This document shows positions 41,307 to 59,009 of a DNA stretch of 64,000 nt, one piece after another. Origin of the DNA: an uncultured Chloroflexia bacterium (GTDB lineage Bacteria > Chloroflexota > Anaerolineae > CG2-30-64-16); the NCBI GenBank assembly GCA_963810095.1, contig CAWEMM010000006.1, positions 736,001 to 800,000 of the forward strand, written 5' to 3'. A program made the translations under genes and the position numbers. Each line of letters begins with the position of its first letter. The first letter of the stretch is position 1. Under the pieces are notes generated by a model. It searched no databases. It saw only the letters and a program-made list of their open reading frames with translations, and had not been told where the DNA came from.

Positions 41307-42725
41307 ATGGCACTTTCCTGGCCTTGGGCTCAGCAGACGCTGAAACGTAAGGCGAAAATCGTATGGATCGACTTGGGTGATCTGGGCGACCTCGTCCACC
41401 CCGAAGGCGCGCACGAGCAGTGGCAGGACCACGGCCTCGGCCTCCTGCGCACGATCCTCCACCAGAACGGAATTCTGACCGACGTCGTCTCGACGCGGGC
41501 AGTGACCAGCTGGGATCAGCTGGCCAAGCAGCTGGTGGGCTATGACATGGCGCTGATGAACGTCCGCAGCTACACGTACCCGTCGGGGCGCAAAGCGGCG
41601 CAAGTGTTCAAGCAGGTGAACCCGAACGGGCTGGTGCTGGCGGGCGGGATGCACGCGACGGTGGCGTGGGAGGAGATGCTCGAGGTCCCCGAGTTCGACA
41701 AGATCTGCCAGGGCGCAGGCGAGAAGGTCATCGTCGACCTGGTCAAGGACCCGGCCGCGTTTCCGCGGCTGTTTGCGGGCCAGAGCGCCGGGAGCATGGC
41801 CGACTGGCCCATGATCGACCGGACGCTGTGGCCGAAGCCCGCCAGCCCCAAGCTCGCCCGCCATTTCAACTGGCCGCTCGAGCCAGAATGCGGCTGGGGC
41901 CCGGCGCCCGTTGCCACCATCCTCACGAGCCGGGTCTGCCCCTGGCAGTGCGTCTTCTGCAACGAGAGCTCGTATGTGCCGAACATGGGGCGCAAGCCGG
42001 TCGACCAGGTCATCGACGAGCTCAACTACCTCGACAACCACTGGGGTTTGGGTTCGTTCGTGATCCACGACTCGATGTTCTTCCAGAACCCGAGCTGGCT
42101 GAAGGAATGGATCGAGAAGTATCCGCGCAAGGCCAACCGGCGCTGGACCTATTGGGCTGCTGCCCGCGCCGACACCGTGCGCCAATGGCCGGACCTGTTC
42201 GAGGCGTTGATCAAGGAGACGAACTGGAACCTGGTTTCGATCGGGTTCGAGTCGGGCAGCGACCGGATTTTGCGGCTGCTTAACAAAGAATGCACCGAAG
42301 AGGACAACAACTTCGCGATCGACCTGCTAAATCGCCTGGGGGACGAACTCGAAGCGCAAGGCAAGCAGGCCCCGAAGTTCTGGTCCAACATCATGCTGGG
42401 CATCCCGGGCGAGCACCCCGAGGACGCTTTCAAAACCATGCGCATGATCAAGCGCATGAAGCGCGTGTTCCCTTCGATCTCGTACTACGCGCCCTACCCC
42501 GGCTCAGCGCTCGGCTTCCAACTCATCGCAGAAGGCAAGAGCCTGATGTCGAAGGACAACTACCACCGCTTCCCCGACGACGAGAAGGTGATGGGCGTGG
42601 ACTACAAGTTCTATCACGAGTTGCTCGCCGGCCGGTACGAGGACGAGGTCAACAAGGAGCTGACGCCGGAAGAGCGGGCCCGCAGTTATTCCGGCCTATA
42701 CGCCCACGCGTTGACGAAGGCATAG
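41307..42725 (+). CDS. B12-binding radical SAM protein (class B methyltransferase-like)
   Basis: GGMHAT in the cobalamin domain; TSRVCPWQCVFC (CxxxCxxC); GFESGS; MLGIPGE; PYPGS. Confidence 0.9.
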   Translation: MALSWPWAQQTLKRKAKIVWIDLGDLGDLVHPEGAHEQWQDHGLGLLRTILHQNGILTDVVSTRAVTSWDQLAKQLVGYDMALMNVRSYTYPSGRKAAQVFKQVNPNGLVLAGGMHATVAWEEMLEVPEFDKICQGAGEKVIVDLVKDPAAFPRLFAGQSAGSMADWPMIDRTLWPKPASPKLARHFNWPLEPECGWGPAPVATILTSRVCPWQCVFCNESSYVPNMGRKPVDQVIDELNYLDNHWGLGSFVIHDSMFFQNPSWLKEWIEKYPRKANRRWTYWAAARADTVRQWPDLFEALIKETNWNLVSIGFESGSDRILRLLNKECTEEDNNFAIDLLNRLGDELEAQGKQAPKFWSNIMLGIPGEHPEDAFKTMRMIKRMKRVFPSISYYAPYPGSALGFQLIAEGKSLMSKDNYHRFPDDEKVMGVDYKFYHELLAGRYEDEVNKELTPEERARSYSGLYAHALTKA

Positions 42726-44067: not shown

Positions 44068-46675
44068 ATGAATTTGAACCGGTATACCCAGCGCGCCCAA
44101 GAGGTCATCATGGCCTCGCAGGAGCTCGCGCAATCTAATAACCATTCCCAGATCGAACCGGAGCACCTGCTGCTGGCCCTCCTGCAGCAGGAAGACGGCG
44201 TCGCGGGCGAGATCTTGCGCCAGGTGGGCGCGGACCCGGCGACCGTCGCAGGACAGTTGGAGGGCGAACTGGCGCGCCGGCCGAAGGCGTACGGCTCGAA
44301 CGTGCAGCCCGGGCTGAGCGGCCAGGCTTCGCGCGTGCTGCAGGACGCGTACGCCGAAGCCAGCCAGATGAAAGACGACTACGTCAGCACCGAGCACATC
44401 CTGCTGGCGCTTGCAGGTTCGAACGGCGGCAACGTCGCCAAGCTGCTCGGCCGCCTGGGCATCACCCGCGACCGCATTCTCGCGGCGCTGACCGCGATTC
44501 GCGGCAACCAGCGGGTGACGAGCCAGAACCCGGAGGCGACGTACAAGGCGCTGGAGAAGTACGGCCGCGACCTGACCCAGGAGGCGCGGCAAGGGCAAGC
44601 TCGACCCGGTCATCGGCCGCGACGAGGAAATCCGCCGGACGATCCAGATCCTGAGCCGGCGCACGAAGAACAACCCCGTGCTCATCGGCGAGCCGGGCGT
44701 GGGCAAGACGGCCATCGTCGAAGGGCTGGCCCAGCGCATCGTGCGGGGTGACGTGCCGGAAGGGCTGAAGGATAAACGCGTCATTGCGCTTGACATGGGT
44801 GCGCTCGTGGCGGGTGCGAAGTACCGCGGCGAGTTCGAGGAGCGGCTCAAGGCCGTGCTGAAGGAAGTGACCGACAGCGCGGGGCAAACCATCCTGTTTA
44901 TCGACGAGCTCCACACGGTAGTCGGCGCGGGCGCGGCCGAGGGCGCGATGGACGCCAGCAACATGCTCAAGCCCATGCTGGCCCGCGGCGAGCTGCACGC
45001 GATCGGCGCGACGACGCTGGACGAGTACCGTAAGCACATCGAGAAGGACCCCGCGCTCGAGCGCCGCTTCCAGCCGGTGCTGGTTGAGGAACCCACCGTC
45101 GAGGATACGATTTCGATCCTGCGCGGGCTGAAGGAACGCTACGAGGTCCATCACAACGTGCGCATCACGGACGGCGCGGTGATCGCGGCCGCGACCCTGT
45201 CGCACCGCTACATCGCGGACCGCTTCTTGCCCGACAAGGCCATCGACCTGATCGACGAGGCCGCGAGCCGGCTGCGGATGGAGATCACGTCGGACCCGGC
45301 CGAGCTGGACGAGATCAAGCGCCGCGCAATGCAACTCGAGATCGAGCGCGAGGCGCTAAAGAAAGAATCGGACGCCGCGTCGAAGAGTCGACTGGAGACG
45401 ATCGAGCGCGAGTTGGCCGACCTGAACGAAGAGCGCAACACGCTCGACGCCCGGCTGAAGGGCGAGCGCGCGGTGATCGAACGGGTGGCGGCCCTCAAGC
45501 AGCAAATGGACGAGACCAAAACCGCAGTGGAGCAGGCGCAGCGGCAGGCGGATTACGGTAAGGCATCCGAGCTCCAGTACGGCAAGCTGGTCGAGCTGGA
45601 GCGGCAGAAGCAGGCCGTCGAAGCGGAACTGGCCCAGATGCAGGGCCGCGGCATGCTACTCAAGGAAGAGGTGGGCGCGGAAGAGGTGGCCGAGGTGGTA
45701 GCCACCTGGACGCACATTCCCGTGTCCAAGCTGCTGGAAGGCGAAATCGAAAAACTGATCAAGATGGAGGACCGGCTGCACGAGCGTGTGATCGGCCAGG
45801 AAGCGGCGCTGAAGGCCGTTGCTGCGGCGGTGCGCCGGGCGCGCGCCGGCCTGCAAGACCCGAACCGGCCCATCGGCTCGTTCATCTTCCTGGGCCCGAC
45901 GGGCGTCGGCAAGACCGAGCTCGCCCGTGCGCTGGCCGAGTTCCTGTTCGACGACGAGAGCGCGATGATCCGCATCGACATGTCGGAGTACCAGGAACGG
46001 CACACGGTCAGCCGGCTGATCGGCGCGCCGCCCGGCTACGTGGGCTACGACGAGGGCGGGCAGCTCACCGAGGCGGTCCGGCGCAAGCCATACAGCGTCG
46101 TGCTGTTCGATGAGATCGAGAAGGCGCACCGGGAGGTGTTCAACACACTGCTGCAGATGCTGGACGACGGCCGGCTGACGGACGGCCACGGCCGAACCGT
46201 AGACTTTACGAACACGGTCGTCATCATGACGTCGAACATCGGCAGCCAGTACATCAACGATCCGAAGCTGACCGACGAGCAGCGGCGGGACCGGGCGATG
46301 GACGCCCTGCGGCAGGCGTTCCCGCCCGAGTTCCTGAACCGGGTGGACGACATCATAGTGTTCCACAGCCTGTCACGCGCCGACCTGGCACAGATCATCC
46401 AGGTGCAGTTGAAGCGGCTGCGCAAGATTCTGGTGGGTCAGGGACTGAACCTGGAGCTGAGCGACGCGGCTGTAGTCTTCCTGGCCGAGAAGGGCTACGA
46501 CCCGACATACGGCGCACGCCCGCTCAAGCGGGCGATCCAGCAGTACGTGCAGGACCCGCTGGCGCTCGCGCTGCTGCAGGGGCAGTTCAAGCGGGGCGAC
46601 ACGATCTTTGCGGACGTGGAGAACGGGCAGATCATCTTCCTGAAGGAGATGGCGAGGGAAAGGGCGGTCGCGTAA
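44068..46675 (+). CDS. clpB: Chaperone ClpB (frameshift near 44594)
   Basis: Clp N-domain; GEPGVGKT; [12 protein letters not shown]; coiled-coil M-domain; GPTGVGKTE; [13 protein letters not shown]. Confidence 0.96.
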
Positions 46676-46684
46676 TGGGGCAAG

Positions 46685-46729
46685 GCGAGGAGGGACCTGG
46701 TATCCCGCGGGAACCAGGTCCCTCCTCGC
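46685..46729 (+). terminator. Strong hairpin after clpB
   Basis: GCGAGGAGGGACCTGGT / ACCAGGTCCCTCCTCGC, 17-bp stem. Confidence 0.7.
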
Positions 46730-46879
46730 ATAGTTCCGCAGTTCAGGCCCAACTGCGGGCGTCTTTAACGGTGCCCGTACGATTCTTGAACGCTCCTGTC
46801 GTACAGTGGGGTTGCACCGAGCGGAAGGTGAGCAAGCGAACGACATGCCGCCCGGCGACTCTGCCGAGGAGTTGTCAAG

Positions 46880-47203
46880 ATGAAAAAGGCAAGCAGGCTG
46901 ATACTCTTGTGGGTGGTCGTGGCCGGCGTACTGGCGACATCGTTTGTGGCAGCGGGCGCCGCAGGCGGGGCCGGCGGCCAGTTCTTCTTCGACAGCGGCG
47001 CACACCGCCCGTTGTCAAAGACTACACACGCGACCACCGTGTTCTTCGGCGACAGTGGGGCCTACCGGCCGGTCACGGCGGGAACGCAGGCGGCCGCCGT
47101 GTTTTTCTCGGACAGCGGAGCGCACCGCCCCCTGCCCGGGGCTGCGAGAGCGCCGCTCGCCTTCTATAGCGACAGCGGCGCTTACCGCCTGCACCGTGGA
47201 TAG
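46880..47203 (+). CDS. Secreted 107-aa protein with four 20-aa-spaced F(F/Y)xDSGA(H/Y)R repeats (candidate multi-core peptide precursor)
   Basis: GAGGAG RBS 8 nt upstream; Sec-type signal (MKK + hydrophobic stretch + Ala/Gly); synonymous variation within the conserved motif. Confidence 0.8.
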   Translation: MKKASRLILLWVVVAGVLATSFVAAGAAGGAGGQFFFDSGAHRPLSKTTHATTVFFGDSGAYRPVTAGTQAAAVFFSDSGAHRPLPGAARAPLAFYSDSGAYRLHRG

Positions 47204-47218
47204 ACGCCTTCGCCTCAG

Positions 47219-47254
47219 AAAAAAGGGCCTCACCCGCAAATTGGGTGAGGCCCT
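47219..47254 (-). terminator. Intrinsic terminator between the repeat-peptide gene and ilvE (T-tract on the minus strand; possibly bidirectional)
   Basis: A6-GGGCCTCACCC-loop-GGGTGAGGCCCT. Confidence 0.75.
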
Positions 47255-47286
47255 GTTGCTATCTGCGTGCCGGATAACAGATCGTG

Positions 47287-48363
47287 CTACGCCCGCGGCT
47301 CAACGCAGTACGTCCACCCGTACGGATCGGGCGCGCGGCCGTACTGGATATCGGTCAGCGCCCCGTACAAGTGCTTGGCCACCGGCCCGCTCTCGTTGTT
47401 GTTGATGATTACCGCATCCTTCTCGTCGCCCAGCTTGCCCACGGGTGCGATGACGGCTGCCGTGCCGATGCCGAACACCTCGGTGATGCGACCCCCGCGG
47501 ATGTCTCGCAGCACCTCGCTGATGTCCAGCTTCTCCTCGCTCACCGTGTAGCCCAGGTCGGGCGCAAGGCGCAGCACGGAGTCCCGCGTGATGCCGGGCA
47601 GGATGCTGCCCGAGAGCGCGGGCGTGGCGATGTGCTTGCCCTCGTAGACGAAGCCGATGTTCATCGCGCCGACCTCCTCCACGTAGCGGTGCTCCACCGC
47701 GTCGAGCCAGCATACCTGCTGGAACCCGAGCGCCCGCACCTGCTCCGCGACATAGAGGCTGGCCGCGTAGTTGCCGCCCGTCTTCGCTTCCCCCGTGCCG
47801 CCCAGCACGGCCCGCACCTTCTCGCGTGACACGTACACCGCCACCGGGTTAAAGCCCGTCGCGAAGTACGGCCCGGTGGGGCCGGCAATGACGAAGTGCA
47901 GATAGCTTTTGCTGGCGTGCACCCCGAGGCCGACGTCGTTGGCGATCATCGTCGGACGGATGTAGAGCGAGGACTCCGGTCCTGCGGGCACGGCTTCGTG
48001 CACCACGCTGACCAGTTCGGCGATGGCTTCCAAGTGGTCTTCCTCGTCGGTGACGGCCATCGCCATCCGCTGCGCCGAGCGATTGAAACGCGCGCAGTTC
48101 TCCCACGGCCGGAACAGGTTGATCTTGCCGTCAGGCCGCCGGTAGGCCTTAAGCCCCTCGAAGATCTCCTGGCCGTAGTGGAAGACCATCGCCGCGGGGT
48201 CCATCATAAACGGCTCGTACGGGCCGATTCGGGCGTCGTGCCAACCCCTCTCAGGGGTGTACTTCTGGCTGAACATGCGATCCGCGAAGTATTTGCCGAA
48301 CGGCAACTGCGCGGGGAACGGTTTCTGCTCGCCTGCTGCGAGCGCTTGAATCTGGATTTGCAC
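47287..48363 (-). CDS. ilvE: Branched-chain amino acid aminotransferase
   Basis: FHYGQEIFEGLKAY, LYIRP, KTGGNYA, EEVGAMN and ILPGITRDS; GTG start after GGGGGAGGAG. Confidence 0.93.
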   Translation of the reverse strand: MQIQIQALAAGEQKPFPAQLPFGKYFADRMFSQKYTPERGWHDARIGPYEPFMMDPAAMVFHYGQEIFEGLKAYRRPDGKINLFRPWENCARFNRSAQRMAMAVTDEEDHLEAIAELVSVVHEAVPAGPESSLYIRPTMIANDVGLGVHASKSYLHFVIAGPTGPYFATGFNPVAVYVSREKVRAVLGGTGEAKTGGNYAASLYVAEQVRALGFQQVCWLDAVEHRYVEEVGAMNIGFVYEGKHIATPALSGSILPGITRDSVLRLAPDLGYTVSEEKLDISEVLRDIRGGRITEVFGIGTAAVIAPVGKLGDEKDAVIINNNESGPVAKHLYGALTDIQYGRAPDPYGWTYCVEPRA

Positions 48364-48510
48364 GCTCTCCTCCCCCTTGATGGTGTGCGAGCATGGGAGC
48401 AACCGCTGCGCGCTTGCGCTCGCATATGTCGCAGGCGCATCATACACCGTCCGCGCCTCCGCAACAATTGCGGGCCGCACGACGTTGGAGTAGACGGCGC
48501 GCTGCCGGCC

Positions 48511-48560
48511 AGACCCCGAAGGTTGCGCCACCTGGATGGCGGCCGAAACCTTCGGGGTCT
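48511..48560. repeat. Family E palindrome
   Basis: AGACCCCGAAGGTT...AACCTTCGGGGTCT, perfect 14-bp arms. Confidence 0.7.
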
Positions 48561-51544: not shown

Positions 51545-52877
51545 TCAGGGCACGTTCACGACGGCGGTCATGTTCCACAGCAGCCGCGGGTCGGGGTTCT
51601 GCAGCTTGACGATCGCCGTGTAGGTCATATCGCCCAACTTCTTCTCGCCCTTTGGCTGCACCCGCTCCACAGTGCCCTTCAGTTCGAGGCCCGGCACGGC
51701 GTCGAACGTGATCCGCACGTCCTGGCCCGGCTGCACTCGGACGACATCCAGCTCGCTCAGGTCGTCGGTTTCCACCTGGAACCCGCTCAGGTCGCCCACC
51801 TCGGCCACCGGCGCACCGGGCGTCACCTGTTCTCCCTGCCGCACGTTCAAGACGGCAAGAGTGCCGCCAAAAGGCGCTCGCAGCTCAGTGTCGTTCAGCG
51901 CCGCCTGTGCCTGGCGCAGGCCGGCTTCGGCCTGGGTCACCGCGGCGTCCGCGGCCGCGATTTCCTGCCGGCGTGCGCCGGCCTTCAGCAGGTCCACTTG
52001 TGCCTGGGCCTGGCGAACGGCGGCTTGCGCACCAGCCAGCTCGGCCGCGGTCGCCGGATCCATCGCCTTATCCGAGCCCTGCCTGCGCCTGCTTGACGGC
52101 AGCGCTTGCCTGGGCCACCTGGTCCGGCTTGGGGGGCGCATTCACCTCGTCCCAGCGCGCCTTGGCGGCGTTGTATGCGTTGGTGGCTTGCTCCAACTGA
52201 AGGCTCTGCGGCAGCATGGCTACGGTGGGCTGATCCTTGACCCTGTCGTACGCGGCCTGGGCATTCCGGAGCGCAGCCTCGGCATTCGCCAGGTCGGCCT
52301 GCACCGAGATCTTGGTGTTCTCGTCCGCACCCTTATAGACCCGGGCGTATGCTGCCTGCGCCGCCTGGAGGCTGGCACGAGCCGCCGCCAGGTCGCCCTG
52401 CCGGCTGCCTTCCTGCAGCCGCGCTACGCCGGCCTTAGCCGCATCCAGCCCCGCCTCCGCGGCCGCGATCTGCTCGGCCCGCGCGCCGGCCTTAAGCGTA
52501 TCCAGCTGCGCCCGCGCGGCCGCCACCGCGCCCTCGGCCTCTGCGACCGCGGCCTGCTGCCGCTCGTTGCGCAGCCGCAAGATGACCTGGCCCGCGCTGA
52601 CCGGCTGGCCCTCCTGCACCAGGATCTCAGAGACGATCCCGCCTGCCGCCATGCTTAAGGCCGCATGCTGAACGGGCGCCAGGATGCCCTTGGCCACGAT
52701 CGCGCGGCTTTCTGCCGCTGCCGCGGCCTGCGCCTCCGGCGCAGTGGTGGCGGCTGCCGCGGGGGCCGGCGCTTGAGCCGCGCGGTCCTGAGCCAGGACG
52801 GCCACGGCGCCCAAGGTCAAGCCGGCGATCACCAGAACGGCCACGACGGCCACGGCTATCTTGCGATGCTTCTTCAT
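51545..52877 (-). CDS. HlyD/MacA-type periplasmic adaptor (frameshift near 52075)
   Basis: Signal/TM segment, lipoyl halves (VQEGQPVSAGQ; LRAPFGG) and a long Ala/Gln coiled coil. Confidence 0.85.
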
Positions 52878-52918
52878 AACGTACTCCTTAGCGCGCGGGA
52901 GAGCAACAGGACCCAACC

Positions 52919-53641
52919 CTACCCGCGGCGCACGATTTCATCCACAATCAGGCCATCGGCCAGCACCACCGTGCGTGATGCACGTTCAGCCAATTCGTCG
53001 TCATGGGTGACCATGACGATCGTCTTGCCGGCAGCGGCCAGGCTCTCGAACAGCGTGAAGACCGTCTCCGCCGACTGCGTGTCGAGGTTGCCGGTGGGCT
53101 CGTCTGCCACGACAATTGCCGGGTCGTTTGCCAGCGCCCGTGCGATGGCCGCACGCTGCTGCTGCCCGCCCGAAACCGTTGCCGGGAACTTGTGCCCGTC
53201 TTGGGCCAGCCCCACTTGCTCGAGCAGGTGGAACGCCCGGTCGTAGCGCTCGCTGGGGCGGTACAGCCGGGCCAGGTCCATGGGCAGCATAACGTTCTCG
53301 GCGATGGTCAGGGTTGGCAGCAGCTGGAAGAACTGGAACACGATGCCCATCGTTCGCCCGCGCCACTCGGCCATCTGCCCTTCGTTAAGCTGGCGCACGC
53401 GGCAGCCCGCCACCACGATTTCGCCGTCAGTCGGGTGATCGATCCCGGTGAACATGTTGATCAGGGTCGACTTGCCGCTGCCCGACTTGCCCACCACCGC
53501 AATGAACTCGCCCGGGGCCACTTGCAGATCGATGCCCTTGAGCGCCGGGAAGGGACCCACCGGGGTCTGGTAGACCTTCGTCAGGCCGCGCAGGTCGATC
53601 ATGGGGGTCGACGAATCACGGGCTGGCCCACGGTCGATCAT
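52919..53641 (-). CDS. ABC transporter ATP-binding protein (MacB/LolD-like)
   Basis: [25 protein letters not shown]. Confidence 0.93.
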
Positions 53642-54405
53642 CGGGCCTCCCCCACGGCGTGCTTGAAACCTTCGACGTCTGCCAGACCTCGCAGGTTTTC
53701 GTCCACGATCTTCCCGTCCGCGATGCGGATTCGCCGGTTTGCCCGGGCCGCCAGGTCGCGGTCATGCGTCACCAGCAACACCGTCTTGCCCTCGTCCACC
53801 AGGCTCGTGAACAACTCGAACATTTCTGCGGTGGTCTTCGAATCGAGATTGCCCGTCGGCTCGTCGGCCACGAGCAGGGCCGGGTCGTTGGCCAGGGCCC
53901 GCGCGATGGCCACGCGCTGGCGCTGGCCACCCGACACGGCCGACGGCAGCTTGTCCGCGTGTTCCACGATGCCCACCCGATCGAGCAGGTGCAGCGCACG
54001 CTCGCGGCGCTGGCGCGGGCCGCCGAACAAACCCGCGAAGTCCATCGGCATCATGACGTTTTGCGCGCATGACAGCATCGGCAGCAGCTGGAAGAACTGG
54101 AATACCACGCCCACCGTCCGCCCGCGCCACGCGGTGACCTGGTCCTCATTCATCGCCTGGACGGCCTTATCGCCCACCCAGATCTCGCCGGCGGTCGGCC
54201 GGTCGATGCCGGTAATCATGTTTACCAGGGTCGATTTGCCCGCGCCGGATTTGCCCACGATCGCCAGGAATTCGCCCGCTCCGACGTTCAGCTCGACGCC
54301 CTTAAGCGCGTAGAAATCGCCGGCCGGAGTCCGGTAGGCCTTCCGCAGATCTTTCACCCGGATCAGCGGCGACGTCAGCGCACCCTTCACAATCGTGTCA
54401 TTCAT
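53638..54405 (-). CDS. ABC transporter ATP-binding protein (MacB/LolD-like)
   Basis: [25 protein letters not shown]. Confidence 0.93.
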
Positions 54406-56795
54406 ATGCCAATACTTCCCGCACCGTCAGGCGCACGGCATTGCGGGCGGGCGCCAGGCTCGCCACTGCTGCAATCGCCAGCAAGACGACGAACCAGACG
54501 AACGCGCCCAGGATCGAGTAGTGGTACTGGAGCGGGATCTTGATCAGGGCCAGGCCCAACTGGGCGCTGAAGAGCGGCGCGAGGCCCAGCGAGATCAGCG
54601 CGCCAATCAGCCAACTGATGACGGCCATCGCGATGCCCTCGGCCAGCACGATCTGCCGCACCGAGGCGTTGGACGCGCCGATCGCCCGCAGCACGCCTAC
54701 CTCACGCACGCGCTCCATCATGTTGATGCTCATGGTCGTCGTCAGGCCCAGCCCGCCGACGGCCGCCAGCAGCAGCGCCATCAGGATCAGAAATGCGACC
54801 ACGATCGTGAACAGCAGGTTATTCTGCGTCTGCGTCACGGCCGCAGTCTGCGTGTCATTCACCTTCAGGCCGCGGCTGTCGAAGTACGAGCGGAGGCGAA
54901 CCGCCATCTCGTGCTGGCTCAGCCGAGACGCCGGGCGCCATGCTCACCTGCACCCGATTGCCCTGGCCCGCAGCGCGGGTCGCATACGCGTAGTCGTCAC
55001 GGGTCACGTAGACCGCGGGCCCGCGCGACTCCGTGCTCACGATCCCGGCAATGTGCCAGGTGGCCTTGCGGTCGTTGATGTCGAGCACCACGTCGCCGCC
55101 GACCCGCAGGTCTTTCTGGTCGTCGGCCAGGTCCGAGTTGATGACGACCGAGTTGGGCGTGCCCGCAGCCGCGGACAACCACTGCCCCGAAATCACCTCG
55201 GGCTCCATCATGCGGGTGTCGGGCGGCACGGCAACCACCCGGAAGGGATTGCTCTTCGTGTCGTCCGCACGAACGCGGGTTGCGCCGCCCATCGACCACA
55301 CTTCCACGGTCCCGACATCGGGCACCTCGCGGGCCGCACTTTCGAGGCGGGTAACGAGGTCGGGGTGTTCCATTTCCACGGAAACGTCGTAGCGGTGGAA
55401 GCGCATGAACGAGTCGAGCGTCGCATTCACCGACGCGCGCACGCTGATCACGGAGATGAACAGGGCCGTGCCGAACACGAGCACGATCAGCGTCTGCACG
55501 AGGCGGCCCTTGTGGCGCAGCGTGTTCCGGGTGGCCAGAAGCACCGGCCGCTGAATCCGCCACACCCGCTGGACACGGTCGAGCACCCGCTCGACGATGC
55601 TGCGCCCGTACGCCTCGCCGCCGATGCCGACGTCGTTCAATGCCTGGTGCGTGGTAATGCGGGTGCCGCGCAGCACGGGTGCCAGGCCCGCCACCAGCGG
55701 CAGCAGCAGCCCGATCGCGGCCTGTGCGGCCAGCAGCGGCAGGGGGATCGCGTAGTTCAGGACGCGCACGTTAAGTAACGGCTCGACCAACTGGCTCATC
55801 AACAGGCGGGCGGTCAACGCCGCGAGCGGCAGCGAGATCACGACCGCCAGGAGACCGTAAATCAGCACGGTCGCGAGGTAGAGCACCATGATCTGGCCCC
55901 GCCGCGCGCCGATCAGCTTCATCACGCCGATCTGGGGCACCTGCTGCGTGATCAGGGCCGACATGGCGTTGACGACGAGAAAACTCGACAGCAGCAGAAT
56001 GACCAGGCCAAACGCAGTGAGGATCAGCACGACGCTGCCGATAAAGGGGTCGGCCCGGCTCTCGGTGATCACTTCGCGGCTGTAGACCTCTCGCCCAGAA
56101 TCCTTGAGCTGCGCCTCCACCTGGTCGAGCGCCGCGCCGATGTGCGCCTTGTCGTGGCTGGGCTCCGTGGCCCGGATAAGCATCTCCGTGTGTGTCGCCG
56201 GGTAGCCGAGGCCCTGGAGGGTTTCCGGCGTGACGTACAGCGTCGCCGCGCCGGCGAGGGTGGGGCTGAAGCGCTGGCCGTCATGCACGGCGCCGACGAG
56301 GCGGAGCGTGCGGGTGGCGTCGTTGTTCAGCTCGACCGTGAGCTCGTCGCCGAGCCTCGCTTGCAGGCTGGCGAACGACGCGCCCTCGACCAGGGTCTCA
56401 CGGCGCTGCGGCGGGTATGCGCCGCTCAGTGGGACAAATGCGTCGACGGTCAGCTTCTCAAAATCGGGGATCGCGACGATTTCGACTTCTTGCGGGGTCC
56501 CGTCTGGGCGCAGAACGCGCCCGGAAACCGTGGAGCGGGCCTCGGCGCCCGCAACCAGGGGCAGCCGCGCGATGCTGTCCGCCAGGTCCTTTTCAAACGG
56601 GGCGGTGTGGACGACGGCAGACGCCATGAGCGCGCCGACCTGGTCCTGGCGGTACTCGCGCACCAGGATCTCTCGGGTGTTCAGCACCACGCCCACCGCG
56701 TACACGCCCACTGCAATCGCCAGCGCTACAACCAGCGTCCGCCCACGGTGTTCCCAAAGATCAAGCAGGACTTTCGTCCATGGTGTCGTCAGCAC
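54398..56795 (-). CDS. FtsX/MacB-type ABC permease with two repeats (frameshift near 54920)
   Basis: [10 protein letters not shown] and [10 protein letters not shown] motifs; terminal EVLAYE. Confidence 0.88.
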
Positions 56796-57067
56796 GATAC
56801 GAAGCTAGCCGGTAACATGAAACGCGAAATAAGCGACGCCAAGGCGCCGCACGATGTACTATAGGCCCGAGAGTGTCATGCGCGGAAGTGACACCTGTCA
56901 TGCCTGTGTCAGGCGGGGGTGCTGGCACCGCAAGATGCGCGGCCGGCAATTGGATACCCGTGCGGCCACTCGAGCGCAGTTTTGCGGCGAGCAGCCCGGG
57001 GCGGGACAGGCCCGGTGCCGCCCCGGGCGTTTACGCCGCCACATGCCCGCCGTGCTATACTCCCCCC

Positions 57068-58375
57068 ATGCAGACCACCGCGCCCGAGCCCGGCTTCGTC
57101 CCGGCTTACCGGTTCTTTGTCGTGATCCGCATCCTGTTCTGGATGGCGGTGGGCCCGGTGCTGCTCCTGCTCCAGCTTGCCGGCGACCCGACGCTGACGG
57201 CCGACCCGGTCCAGGGCGAACGGCTGATCCGGGCGCTCTCGCTGCCGAACGTATTGCCGCTCGTCGCCCTCGACTTCATCCTGCTCGCCCTCCTGATTTG
57301 GCCAAAGGCGCAGGAACTGGGGCGCTGGTTCGTCCCGCTCACGCTGGCACTCGGCCTCATCCCCCTGCTCGTCGGCTACTACCTCTGGCCGGCTATCAAC
57401 CCGCTGCAGTCGCCGTTCGTGATGTTCTTCTTCGTCACCGCCGTGCTGGTGGCGTGGGAGTACAAATACCGCTACCTGTACGTGTACGTATTTGCCATCA
57501 CGCTGTACCAGACCCTCGTTTCGCCGTGGTACGGCAATGTGCCGTGGACGGTGCCGGGGGGCTTCCTCGTGCTGCAAGCGGTGATGATGCTGCTCGTCGG
57601 GTCAGTCGTCGCCACGATGGTCACGGTGCAGGCCGCCCAGCGGGCCGAGCTCGCCGACGCGTACTGGCGCCAGGCCGCCGACAACGAACGGCTGCAGCAG
57701 TACGCGGCAACCCTTGAAGAGCTGTCGATCACCCGTGAGCGCAACCGCCTCTCCCGCGAACTGCACGACACGCTGGCCCATTCTCTGAGCGCCGTGACCG
57801 TCCAAATCGAAGCAGTGCGCTCGCTGTGGGATAAGCAGCCGCAAAAAGCGCACGACATGCTGGAGAAGGCGGATGCGACCGCCCGTACCGGCCTGGCCGA
57901 AGCCCGCCGCGCGCTCCAGGCGCTGCGCGCGTCGCCGCTGGAAGACCTCGGCCTCGCCTTGGCGCTCCAGGAGCTCGCCCAGAGCGCGGCCGACCGCAGC
58001 GGGGCCCGCCTCGAGCTGCGCGTGCCCGACGCCTTGCAAGGCTGCTATCCGAACAGCGTCGAACAGAGCGTCTACCGTATCGCTCAGGAAACCCTCGAAA
58101 ACGCGGTGCGCCACGCGGCCGCGTCGACGATCGGGGTGGAACTGCGCGAGGCGGAGAACGAACTAACCCTTTGCGTGCAGGATGACGGCGAGGGGATGGA
58201 CGCCGGCTCGCTGGACGAGGCGTCGGAGGGTGGGCTGGGCATACGCGGGATGCAGGAGCGGGCGGCCCTCATTGGCGGCAGGCTGGAGATCGACAGCGCG
58301 GCGGGTTCGGGCACGCGGGTCACCCTGGCCGTGCCGGTAGAAAGAACAACGGATGATCCGTGTCTTGATTTGTGA
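57068..58375 (+). CDS. Membrane sensor histidine kinase (HisKA_3, NarX/DesK-like)
   Basis: TM helices; ERNRLSRELHDTLAH; QETLENAVRHA; DDGEG; GLGIRGMQER. Confidence 0.92.
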   Translation: MQTTAPEPGFVPAYRFFVVIRILFWMAVGPVLLLLQLAGDPTLTADPVQGERLIRALSLPNVLPLVALDFILLALLIWPKAQELGRWFVPLTLALGLIPLLVGYYLWPAINPLQSPFVMFFFVTAVLVAWEYKYRYLYVYVFAITLYQTLVSPWYGNVPWTVPGGFLVLQAVMMLLVGSVVATMVTVQAAQRAELADAYWRQAADNERLQQYAATLEELSITRERNRLSRELHDTLAHSLSAVTVQIEAVRSLWDKQPQKAHDMLEKADATARTGLAEARRALQALRASPLEDLGLALALQELAQSAADRSGARLELRVPDALQGCYPNSVEQSVYRIAQETLENAVRHAAASTIGVELREAENELTLCVQDDGEGMDAGSLDEASEGGLGIRGMQERAALIGGRLEIDSAAGSGTRVTLAVPVERTTDDPCLDL

Positions 58376-59009
58376 CGATCAGACCGTCGTACGCGACGGC
58401 CTGGAAGCGATCCTGAGCACCGACGACGAGATCGAAGTCGTCGGGGTGGCGCGGCACGGCCAGGAAGCGCTCGACCTCGCGGCCCAGCGGCAGCCCGACG
58501 TGGTGCTGATGGACCTCAAGATGCCCGTGCTGAACGGGGTGCAGGCAACCGAGCGACTGCGCAAAAATTGGCCGGGGGTCCGGGTGCTTGTGCTGACCAC
58601 CTACGCGGATGATGCTTGGGTGCTCGACGCCGTGCGAGCGGGGGCCTCGGGCTACCTGCTGAAGGACACCCGCCGAGAGGATTTGCTGGTTGCCATCAAA
58701 GGGACGGCGGCAGGCAAGACGTACCTCGACCCGTCCGTGGCCGGGAAGGTCGTGCGCCAGGTGGCTGCGCCGCCCGAGCCGCCAGGGCAGCTGGGCGAGC
58801 CGCTGACGGAGCGGGAGCTTAGCATCTTAGGGCTGATCTGCCGGGGCTACAGCAACCCTGAGATCGCCCAACAGCTCCACCTGGCCGCCGGCACTGTCCG
58901 CAACTACGTGAGCAGCATCCTGCAGAAGCTGGAGGTCGAAGATCGGACGCAGGCCGCCGCCGTCGCCTACCAGCGCGGCCTCATCGACCCTCCTGGAAAA
59001 CGACCCTAA
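58353..59009 (+). CDS. NarL/LuxR-family response regulator
   Basis: CDDQ, LMDLKMP, GYLLK and LTERE...TVRNYVSSILQKL. Confidence 0.95.
   Translation: MIRVLICDDQTVVRDGLEAILSTDDEIEVVGVARHGQEALDLAAQRQPDVVLMDLKMPVLNGVQATERLRKNWPGVRVLVLTTYADDAWVLDAVRAGASGYLLKDTRREDLLVAIKGTAAGKTYLDPSVAGKVVRQVAAPPEPPGQLGEPLTERELSILGLICRGYSNPEIAQQLHLAAGTVRNYVSSILQKLEVEDRTQAAAVAYQRGLIDPPGKRP

Follow-up and report, generated by a model that had tools for sequence, protein, structure and literature searches.

The window analysed here is a stretch of 64,000 nucleotides (nt) on contig CAWEMM010000006.1 from the genome of an uncultured Chloroflexia bacterium. Between the genes for ClpB and a class IV aminotransferase it contains a small open reading frame (ORF), at 46880..47203 of the forward strand, whose 107-residue product carries four copies of a short motif. 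An original prediction had described these as four F-[FY]-x-D-S-G-A-[HY]-R cores spaced 20 residues apart in an otherwise undescribed secreted protein. Its coordinates, its product and the positions of the core Asp codons, which begin at 46991, 47051, 47111 and 47171, were all reproduced, and the quoted product is the translation of this frame. The ATG at 46880 is the earliest start codon after the upstream stop, and the GAGGAG ribosome-binding site proposed in front of it is seen at 46866-46871.

The product begins with MKKASR, continues with a 19-residue hydrophobic stretch and AGAAGGAGG, and then runs through four 20-residue units. The first half of each unit reads x-F-[FY]-x-D-S-G-A-[HY]-R, the spacing from core to core is exactly 20 residues throughout, and the linkers are rich in Pro, Ala and Thr. 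Cys is absent from the whole product, Trp from everything downstream of the signal region, and each core has one Ser and one Asp, side by side. Every core closes with R-P or R-L, with no dibasic site flanking it. The individual features are as follows.

46880..47203, + strand: ORF, 107 codons plus stop; best codon-usage frame and only core-conserving frame
46866..46871, + strand: Shine-Dalgarno-like GAGGAG, 8 nt 5' of the ATG
46880..46960, + strand: putative signal peptide or signal anchor, residues 1-27, with MKKASR as n-region and the 19-residue hydrophobic stretch
ending at residue 27 of the ORF, + strand: possible A-G-A cleavage motif, with a cleavage site predicted from sequence
46961..46978, + strand: Ala/Gly hinge AGGAGG, residues 28-33, read from the sequence
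46982..47008, + strand: core 1, FFFDSGAHR; unit 1 matched by the unit profile with E=3.0e-11
47009..47041, + strand: linker 1, PLSKTTHATT followed by residue 1 of unit 2, which varies
47042..47068, + strand: core 2, FFGDSGAYR; unit 2 matched by the unit profile with E=7.4e-10
47069..47101, + strand: linker 2, PVTAGTQAAA followed by residue 1 of unit 3, which varies
47102..47128, + strand: core 3, FFSDSGAHR; unit 3 matched by the unit profile with E=3.4e-10
47129..47161, + strand: linker 3, PLPGAARAPL followed by residue 1 of unit 4, which varies
47162..47188, + strand: core 4, FYSDSGAYR; unit 4 matched by the unit profile with E=7.4e-7
after core 4, + strand: tail LHRG, then the stop codon TAG at 47201-47203

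Coding and selection evidence

The four units can be compared with one another in the way orthologues usually are. Over the eight conserved core codons, the pairwise differences among units amount to 4/48 at first, 3/48 at second and 23/48 at third codon positions; the corresponding values for the linkers are 33/54, 30/54 and 31/54. Counted by column, six of the eight third positions of the cores vary, as opposed to 2 of the 16 columns at the other two codon positions (Fisher P=0.0047). Pooled Nei-Gojobori estimates of the proportions of synonymous (pS) and non-synonymous (pN) differences give a pS of 0.81, a pN of 0.061 and a ratio of 0.075 for the cores, where the choice of the cores by their conservation biases pN downwards and does not bias pS upwards, versus 0.58, 0.58 and 0.99 for the linkers. 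Since the synonymous sites of the cores are saturated, the choice of columns alone cannot account for the core pattern. Recent duplication or gene conversion does not explain the pattern either, because each would have left the third positions alike. Selection is thus shown to act on the cores and not on the sequence of the linkers, which bears out the earlier claim of selection on the peptide. The varied codons behind the invariant DSGA, on which that claim was built, are also found: the invariant Ala is encoded by GCA, GCC, GCG and GCT in cores 1-4, that is by all four of its codons, and the invariant Gly by GGC, GGG, GGA and GGC.

Two further observations concern the synonymous sites. The use of all four codons for the invariant Ala has a probability of 0.025 under the codon usage of the genome, and the pS of the cores (0.81) exceeds that of the linkers (0.58). 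This may reflect selection against identity of the repeats at the DNA level, which would avoid recombination.

The divergence profile of the cores matches that of genuine genes of the same genus. Orthologues of clpB and of the aminotransferase gene differ between congeners at 0.05-0.12 of first and second and at 0.29-0.46 of third codon positions. When all frames are compared, conservation of the cores is confined to the frame of the ORF, and in the antisense frame with the same wobble positions, units 2 and 4 are interrupted by stop codons. The ORF frame also has the best codon-usage score of the six (0.139, with the others between -0.19 and -0.89), a value that 0.19% of off-frame and 3.7% of antisense chunks from real genes reach. 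A 5-nt Shine-Dalgarno core at -18..-5, as present here, precedes 4641 of the 146975 ATG triplets in the genome (3.2%). The codon pattern of a single core has four matches in the genome, all within the ORF, and none in 36 other genomes of the family; its reversed control has none. A scan for repeats among signal-peptide-like ORFs of 50-250 residues flagged 12 in the genome, and, judged by eye, a 20-residue period combined with a motif that is not of low complexity occurs only in this one.

The sequence of the ORF appears to be no assembly artefact, since low-depth contigs from four other runs of four different studies match the window. The DNA data sets in which the stretch was located are sediment and soil metagenomes; no RNA run was listed as containing it, which says nothing for or against expression. 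The contigs covering 46759-46993, 46804-47028 and 47138-47344 show no differences and the contig covering 46907-47057 shows two; contigs from other runs leave 47058-47137 uncovered, and one of the runs may be the source of the window itself. On the sequence evidence, we hold with considerable confidence that the ORF is a real, translated gene.

Origin of the repeats

Some memory of the duplications is retained in the linkers. The DNA identity of the linkers of units 1 and 2 is 0.57, a value reached by none of 2000 shuffles, and that of units 1 and 3 is 0.47 (P=0.0075), the shuffle mean being 0.28 in both cases. The earlier description of the linkers as unrelated does not hold for these two pairs, and the leftover identity suggests that the entire 60-nt unit was duplicated. 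Core identity is highest between units 1 and 3 (0.77; 0.63-0.70 for the remaining pairs), and linker identity peaks between units 1 and 2. Hence, the alternation of His and Tyr along the chain is confirmed, whereas the duplication of a two-core unit that had been read from it is not singled out by the similarities of the units. At the DNA level, Tandem Repeats Finder calls no tandem repeat.

All three linkers are equal in length despite their near-saturated sequence divergence. The synonymous divergence between units is about that of genus-level orthologues, so the duplications are not recent. Such age, in a gene that the congeners lack, hints that the gene came by transfer from a donor not yet sampled, was lost repeatedly or diverged at an accelerated rate.

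Search for relatives

Profile and sequence searches returned no relative, in agreement with the claim that the protein is undescribed. Pfam-A yields no family for the ORF at E-values up to 10, including the models for curli, chaplin, choline-binding and RHS/YD repeats, and NCBIfam yields only noise (a secG match at E=1.6). The same threshold of 10 gives no match among the sequences of the PDB. No paralogue was found in the genome itself. A phmmer search of 1.84 billion protein cluster representatives returned neither a relative nor a self match; its three matches with E-values of 2.2e-5 to 5e-4 are repeat proteins of 509-1521 residues, whose repeats proved unrelated on reading. A homologue search among proteins of near length scored none of 31 candidates. 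In the ESM Atlas the best score was 0.80 with the whole protein, and residues 34-107 gave no usable match. Four six-letter strings of the motif gave no paper in a literature search, which went no wider for the motif.

Six-frame searches covered four sets of genomes, each including G000, the genome of the ORF. Among 61 relatives the best non-self E-value is 3e-4; 19 non-self genomes have a match at E-values up to 0.1, of which locus L007 was translated and the remainder score 18.4 bits or less. In the order set (37 genomes) G000 alone matches. The class set (401 genomes) gives three genomes with E-values up to 0.001 and the phylum set (401 genomes) two, G000 included in each count. The two non-self matches of the class set were rejected: G284 (L041) is a hydrophobic, membrane-like frame, and G057 (L007) is a member of another small-protein family and its profile alignment is restricted to the signal peptide. 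G446 in the phylum set (E 9.6e-4), which contains an internal TAG, was judged on its score alone. A 20-column profile of the unit finds only isolated single matches at chance level in 60 other genomes, with E-values of 0.0115 or worse.

Plasmids and phages contained no relative. Genomic, metagenomic and viral contigs gave none in scans keyed on 8-residue words of the protein, which could overlook relatives that lack annotation and lie beyond the genome sets of the six-frame searches. One metagenomic locus (L040) was discarded: it has an 8-residue word in a frame beside secretin-like ORFs and lacks the DSGA motif. In an exact look-up against a collection of 15 billion proteins, the neighbouring glycosyltransferase is present and the ORF is absent together with six ORFs that overlap it, which implies that public gene calling skipped the region.

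The sequence family thus appears to be new and is known so far from one Chloroflexota-type species. The original prediction was to be strengthened by homologues with a variable number of conserved cores and variable linkers, and no homologue of any kind was found; conversely, it was to be abandoned if homologues and expression were both missing, and the first of these two, the lack of homologues, is what the searches returned.

The spacer and its neighbours

The clpB gene and the class IV aminotransferase gene (47287..48531, minus strand) are convergent in the genus. The spacer between them is 611 nt long in this genome, occurs in no other copy there, and has the ORF flanked by two hairpins that are unrelated to each other:

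46685..46729, + strand: GC-rich hairpin following the clpB stop codon (46673-46675), -49.6 kcal/mol, z -7.95
47224..47254, - strand: intrinsic terminator hairpin with a 12-pair stem, 9 GC pairs and the tail TTTTTTCTGAG

The first hairpin has 20 pairs, matches itself in inverse orientation and is followed by no U-run, so transcription of clpB may read through it into the ORF. Rfam matches of this hairpin to microRNA hairpins are spurious artefacts. The sequence after the second hairpin on the plus strand is GUUGCUAUC. Because its T-run lies on the minus strand, the second hairpin is mainly the terminator of the aminotransferase gene and at best a bidirectional one for the ORF. Both hairpins thus flank the ORF as had been noted, whereas the terminator assigned to the ORF belongs chiefly to its neighbour.

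The spacer is a turnover spot, a hotspot for small insertions. In G002 and G004 it measures ~75 and ~115 nt, with one hairpin and no genes. In G005 and G006 it is ~870 nt long and encodes on the minus strand a toxin-antitoxin pair of PIN-domain and MazE/AbrB type. In G001 clpB and the aminotransferase gene are not neighbours. The ORF was either gained in this lineage or lost in the others. The pair of G005 and G006 (L036 671-1409 and L035 1859-2597) consists of a PIN-domain protein of 167 residues and a MazE/AbrB-type antitoxin of 94 residues.

Beyond ClpB and the aminotransferase, the next genes outward encode a GNAT protein and a GT1-type glycosyltransferase. A Pfam scan of 22 proteins of the window, covering ~13 kb on each side, found no TPR family, and the same scan detects no receptor, protease, transporter or modifying enzyme adjoining the ORF, as the original prediction had stated for receptors and maturases. 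A gene for a B12-binding radical SAM protein of 472 residues lies at 41307-42725, ~4 kb upstream. It is kept beside clpB at 71-91% identity in G001, G002 and G005, and since these congeners lack the ORF, it belongs to the conserved backbone rather than serving as a dedicated partner.

Three side observations concern this neighbourhood. In G001, G002 and G004 the radical SAM match is broken up or interrupted by stops, perhaps as a matter of assembly quality. The clpB gene of the window (44068-46675) is split near 44590 into an ORF of 227 residues (Clp_N) and one of 665 residues starting from the Walker A region; the expected sequence resumes in the +1 frame at ~44590, owing either to an indel in the assembly or to a genuine frameshift. 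Four genes from the ORF, the region 51545-59009 encodes an HlyD-type adaptor together with two ABC ATPases and a pair of FtsX-type permeases, and beside them lie genes for a HisKA_3 histidine kinase and a LuxR-type response regulator; by their predicted domains these form a MacB-like module for export that has a two-component system to itself.

An exported chain of four motifs?

What could such a protein do? At its N-terminus, a basic n-region leads into a hydrophobic helix (residues 2-25), and small residues follow. An AlphaFold2 model from the single sequence places a helix at residues 2-25 with a predicted local distance difference test score (pLDDT) above 80 (84 and 82 in its two blocks). 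For residues 25-107 the pLDDT is below 50 (46.4 on average for the whole model), a low value that, obtained from a single sequence, does not prove disorder. If the gene is real, its product would in all likelihood be exported through the Sec pathway, and the tail is predicted to be flexible and largely unstructured.

We favour the reading that the ORF encodes a lineage-specific, small Sec-exported protein that presents four motifs on a flexible chain. Each motif would consist of an aromatic pair, an Asp-Ser-Gly turn and a His/Tyr-Arg end, and the linkers would hold the motifs 20 residues apart with their own sequence free to drift. The intact chain would then act as a multivalent display of four equivalent motifs, which may bind a partner of the cell envelope that is itself oligomeric or built of repeats, or one another. 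To this reading as a whole, which is drawn from sequence, we assign a probability of about 0.4. For an exported product, action as an intact chain is slightly favoured over processing: the fixed length of the linkers despite saturation of their sequence fits a constraint on spacing better than it fits cleavage spacers, although this is a weak argument.

Several points weigh against the favoured reading. The argument from spacing suffers from the fact that indels are rare anyway, and the data are compatible with an intact protein as well as with a processed precursor. The N-terminus may be a signal peptide or a membrane anchor. As for the gene itself, it is left uncalled in the public annotation of its own contig, no homologue was found that would confirm conservation between species, and a promoter scan upstream of the ORF returns no sites. 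Against 107-codon chunks of 800 long ORFs sampled from the training set, its codon score ranks no higher than the 3rd percentile, and its GC content at third codon positions is 0.79 compared with 0.87-0.89 in neighbouring genes. To these are added the limits of the single-sequence model and of the core pN given above. Finally, duplications as old as those of the units sit uneasily with the absence of the gene from seven congeners.

Alternative explanations and known systems

The best-placed alternative, although itself unlikely, is a secreted multi-core pro-peptide from which extracellular proteases would free four signals or bioactive peptides of 9-11 residues, with a receptor encoded elsewhere. 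Conserved cores joined by neutrally drifting linkers are what a cut-and-release precursor would be expected to show, and the alternation of His and Tyr would give two peptide variants. In its layout the ORF product falls inside what has been described for RRNPPA propeptides such as Phr, NprX and AimP. In the accessible parts of two accounts these are Sec-exported, 50-120 residues long and carry putative pheromones of 5-10 residues in 1 to 4 repeated copies (PMC11343458; PMC5199041). Like them, as far as those parts describe them, the ORF product is small, has what may be a Sec-type N-terminus and is built from repeated, slightly differing units with conserved cores and a variable remainder. 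The accessible text of a third account gives a search default of 10-100 residues for propeptides and places their genes directly beside that of a TPR receptor of 250-500 residues (PMC10075063). At 107 residues the ORF product falls inside the former range and exceeds the latter by 7.

It is this adjoining receptor gene, presented in the latter source as a defining feature of RRNPP systems, that the ORF does not have. The model of Rgg-type receptors, TIGR01716, which represents one receptor subtype, has no match in the genome (88.5% complete). Such systems are described from Bacillota, and the host here is of Chloroflexota type. The ORF product further differs in cores of ~9-10 residues at a fixed spacing of 20, and it has no similarity to known propeptides. 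Three linkers of identical length would be unneeded in a spacer that is discarded, and no homologues with differing numbers of cores were found. The peptide-signal or RiPP (a peptide made on the ribosome and modified after translation) system of the original prediction is therefore backed by the layout alone, given that neither an adjacent receptor or maturase nor homologues with variable cores turned up. The specific version, a secreted signal precursor giving four peptides in His and Tyr variants with a Phr/AimP-like layout outside Bacillota and an uncoupled receptor gene, we regard as improbable. A similar order of signal peptide and repeated core peptides is described, in the accessible part of the source, for fungal Kex2-processed repeat proteins (PMC7329392), and other eukaryotic multi-core precursors with a signal peptide share it. 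These are eukaryotic and have dibasic Kex2 sites between their cores, different from the R-P or R-L ends of the cores in the ORF.

A somewhat less probable explanation is that the ORF has no function as a protein. It could be a chance frame in an expanded GC-rich spacer, or its repeats could act at the level of DNA or RNA as protein-binding sites or as a decayed array resembling clustered regularly interspaced short palindromic repeats (CRISPR). Such an explanation would account for the missing homologues, the missing gene call and a codon-usage score that is low for a real gene, and a 60-nt period of ~30 conserved and ~30 variable nt does look like a repeat-spacer array. It fails to explain why variation in the cores sits at third positions, and why all four codons serve the invariant Ala; an element acting as DNA or RNA would lack variation phased by codons. 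The repeats, at 63-77% identity, are unlike those of CRISPR, and neither this identity nor the codon phasing nor the lack of a tandem repeat agrees with a degenerate array. Tandem Repeats Finder and Rfam are both blank here, the genome offers no second copy of the spacer, and the ORF has both a Shine-Dalgarno site and an N-terminus that looks like a signal.

Of comparable standing, if marginally behind, is a self-assembling subunit, whose cores would form β-hairpins that stack into a short β-solenoid or into an amyloid-like cross-β surface fibre. The exact period of 20 residues and a D-S-G turn flanked by aromatic residues would suit such an architecture. Functional amyloid subunits such as CsgA and FapC are, as far as the accessible parts of the sources describe them, exported and made of several imperfect repeats joined by linkers (bioRxiv 10.1101/2020.03.09.983882; PMC9268375); the ORF product has such repeats and linkers and is predicted to be exported. 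Unlike them, the ORF product has no Pfam match, the models for curli, chaplin, choline-binding and RHS/YD repeats included, and the scan of the neighbouring proteins found no nucleator, chaperone or other helper gene and no secretion genes nearby. Half of every unit is neutral, which would be unusual in a packed solenoid coil, and the low pLDDT of residues 25-107 points the same way, if weakly for a single-sequence model. Curli repeats have a period of ~20 residues, close to that of the ORF. They are rich in Gln/Asn, Gly and Ser, and the motif of the ORF is rich in Phe/Tyr, Asp and Arg. The weak likeness to 20-residue choline-binding repeats that had been raised as a further option finds no backing, given the blank Pfam search and the absence of Trp after the signal region.

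A multi-core RiPP precursor with cores modified by enzymes encoded elsewhere is very improbable: such precursors typically repeat a conserved core between variable spacers and a B12-binding radical SAM gene is at hand, but this gene also occurs in the ORF-less G001, G002 (empty spacer) and G005 (toxin-antitoxin pair), no other maturase, protease-transporter or immunity gene adjoins the ORF, the cores offer no Cys and only one Ser beside one Asp, and in place of a cytoplasmic leader or follower the product has an N-terminus with the traits of a Sec signal or anchor, which would carry the peptide away from cytoplasmic enzymes.

A parallel to the ORF exists within the same bacterial class. Alignment A2 collects an unnamed secreted family of ~94 residues from Chloroflexi/Anaerolineae, with at least 55 members (proteins P0006-P0060 among them) and no Pfam or NCBIfam model. 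Its units, GYDLSWW..DGGG, GGYxLxGTAGQPDAG and GGYxLxGGFW, lie ~20 residues apart and are followed by a YLPLV tail. One member, L007 1498-1782 in G057, adjoins a PKD-domain protein, and the AlphaFold model of the family is poor (mean pLDDT 55.7). The family shares with the ORF product its size and a predicted signal peptide followed by short units at a period of 19-20 residues, and the pairwise BLASTP E-value of 1e-5 is due to the signal peptide. Profile comparison, on the other hand, aligns only 25 residues of the signal peptide, with a probability of 17.6%, and GYDLSWW, GQPDAG, GGFW and YLPLV are unrelated to F-F-x-D-S-G-A-H-R. No member of A2 was found in the genome of the ORF.

Implications

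The general kind of protein is a familiar one, a small exported protein made of short tandem motifs. What the present case adds is that the internal repeats of an orphan can serve as its own conservation test, an approach that is extendable to other orphan ORFs with repeats. Its practical value is modest, as the organism is uncultured. In a bold reading, the gene was recently born or acquired in a fast-turnover spacer and later came under strong selection. If the processed-peptide reading were true, multi-copy peptide signalling would extend past Bacillota. If instead the product is exported and functional, it would be a species-specific envelope or secreted protein that was born, or has landed, in the spacer between clpB and the aminotransferase gene.

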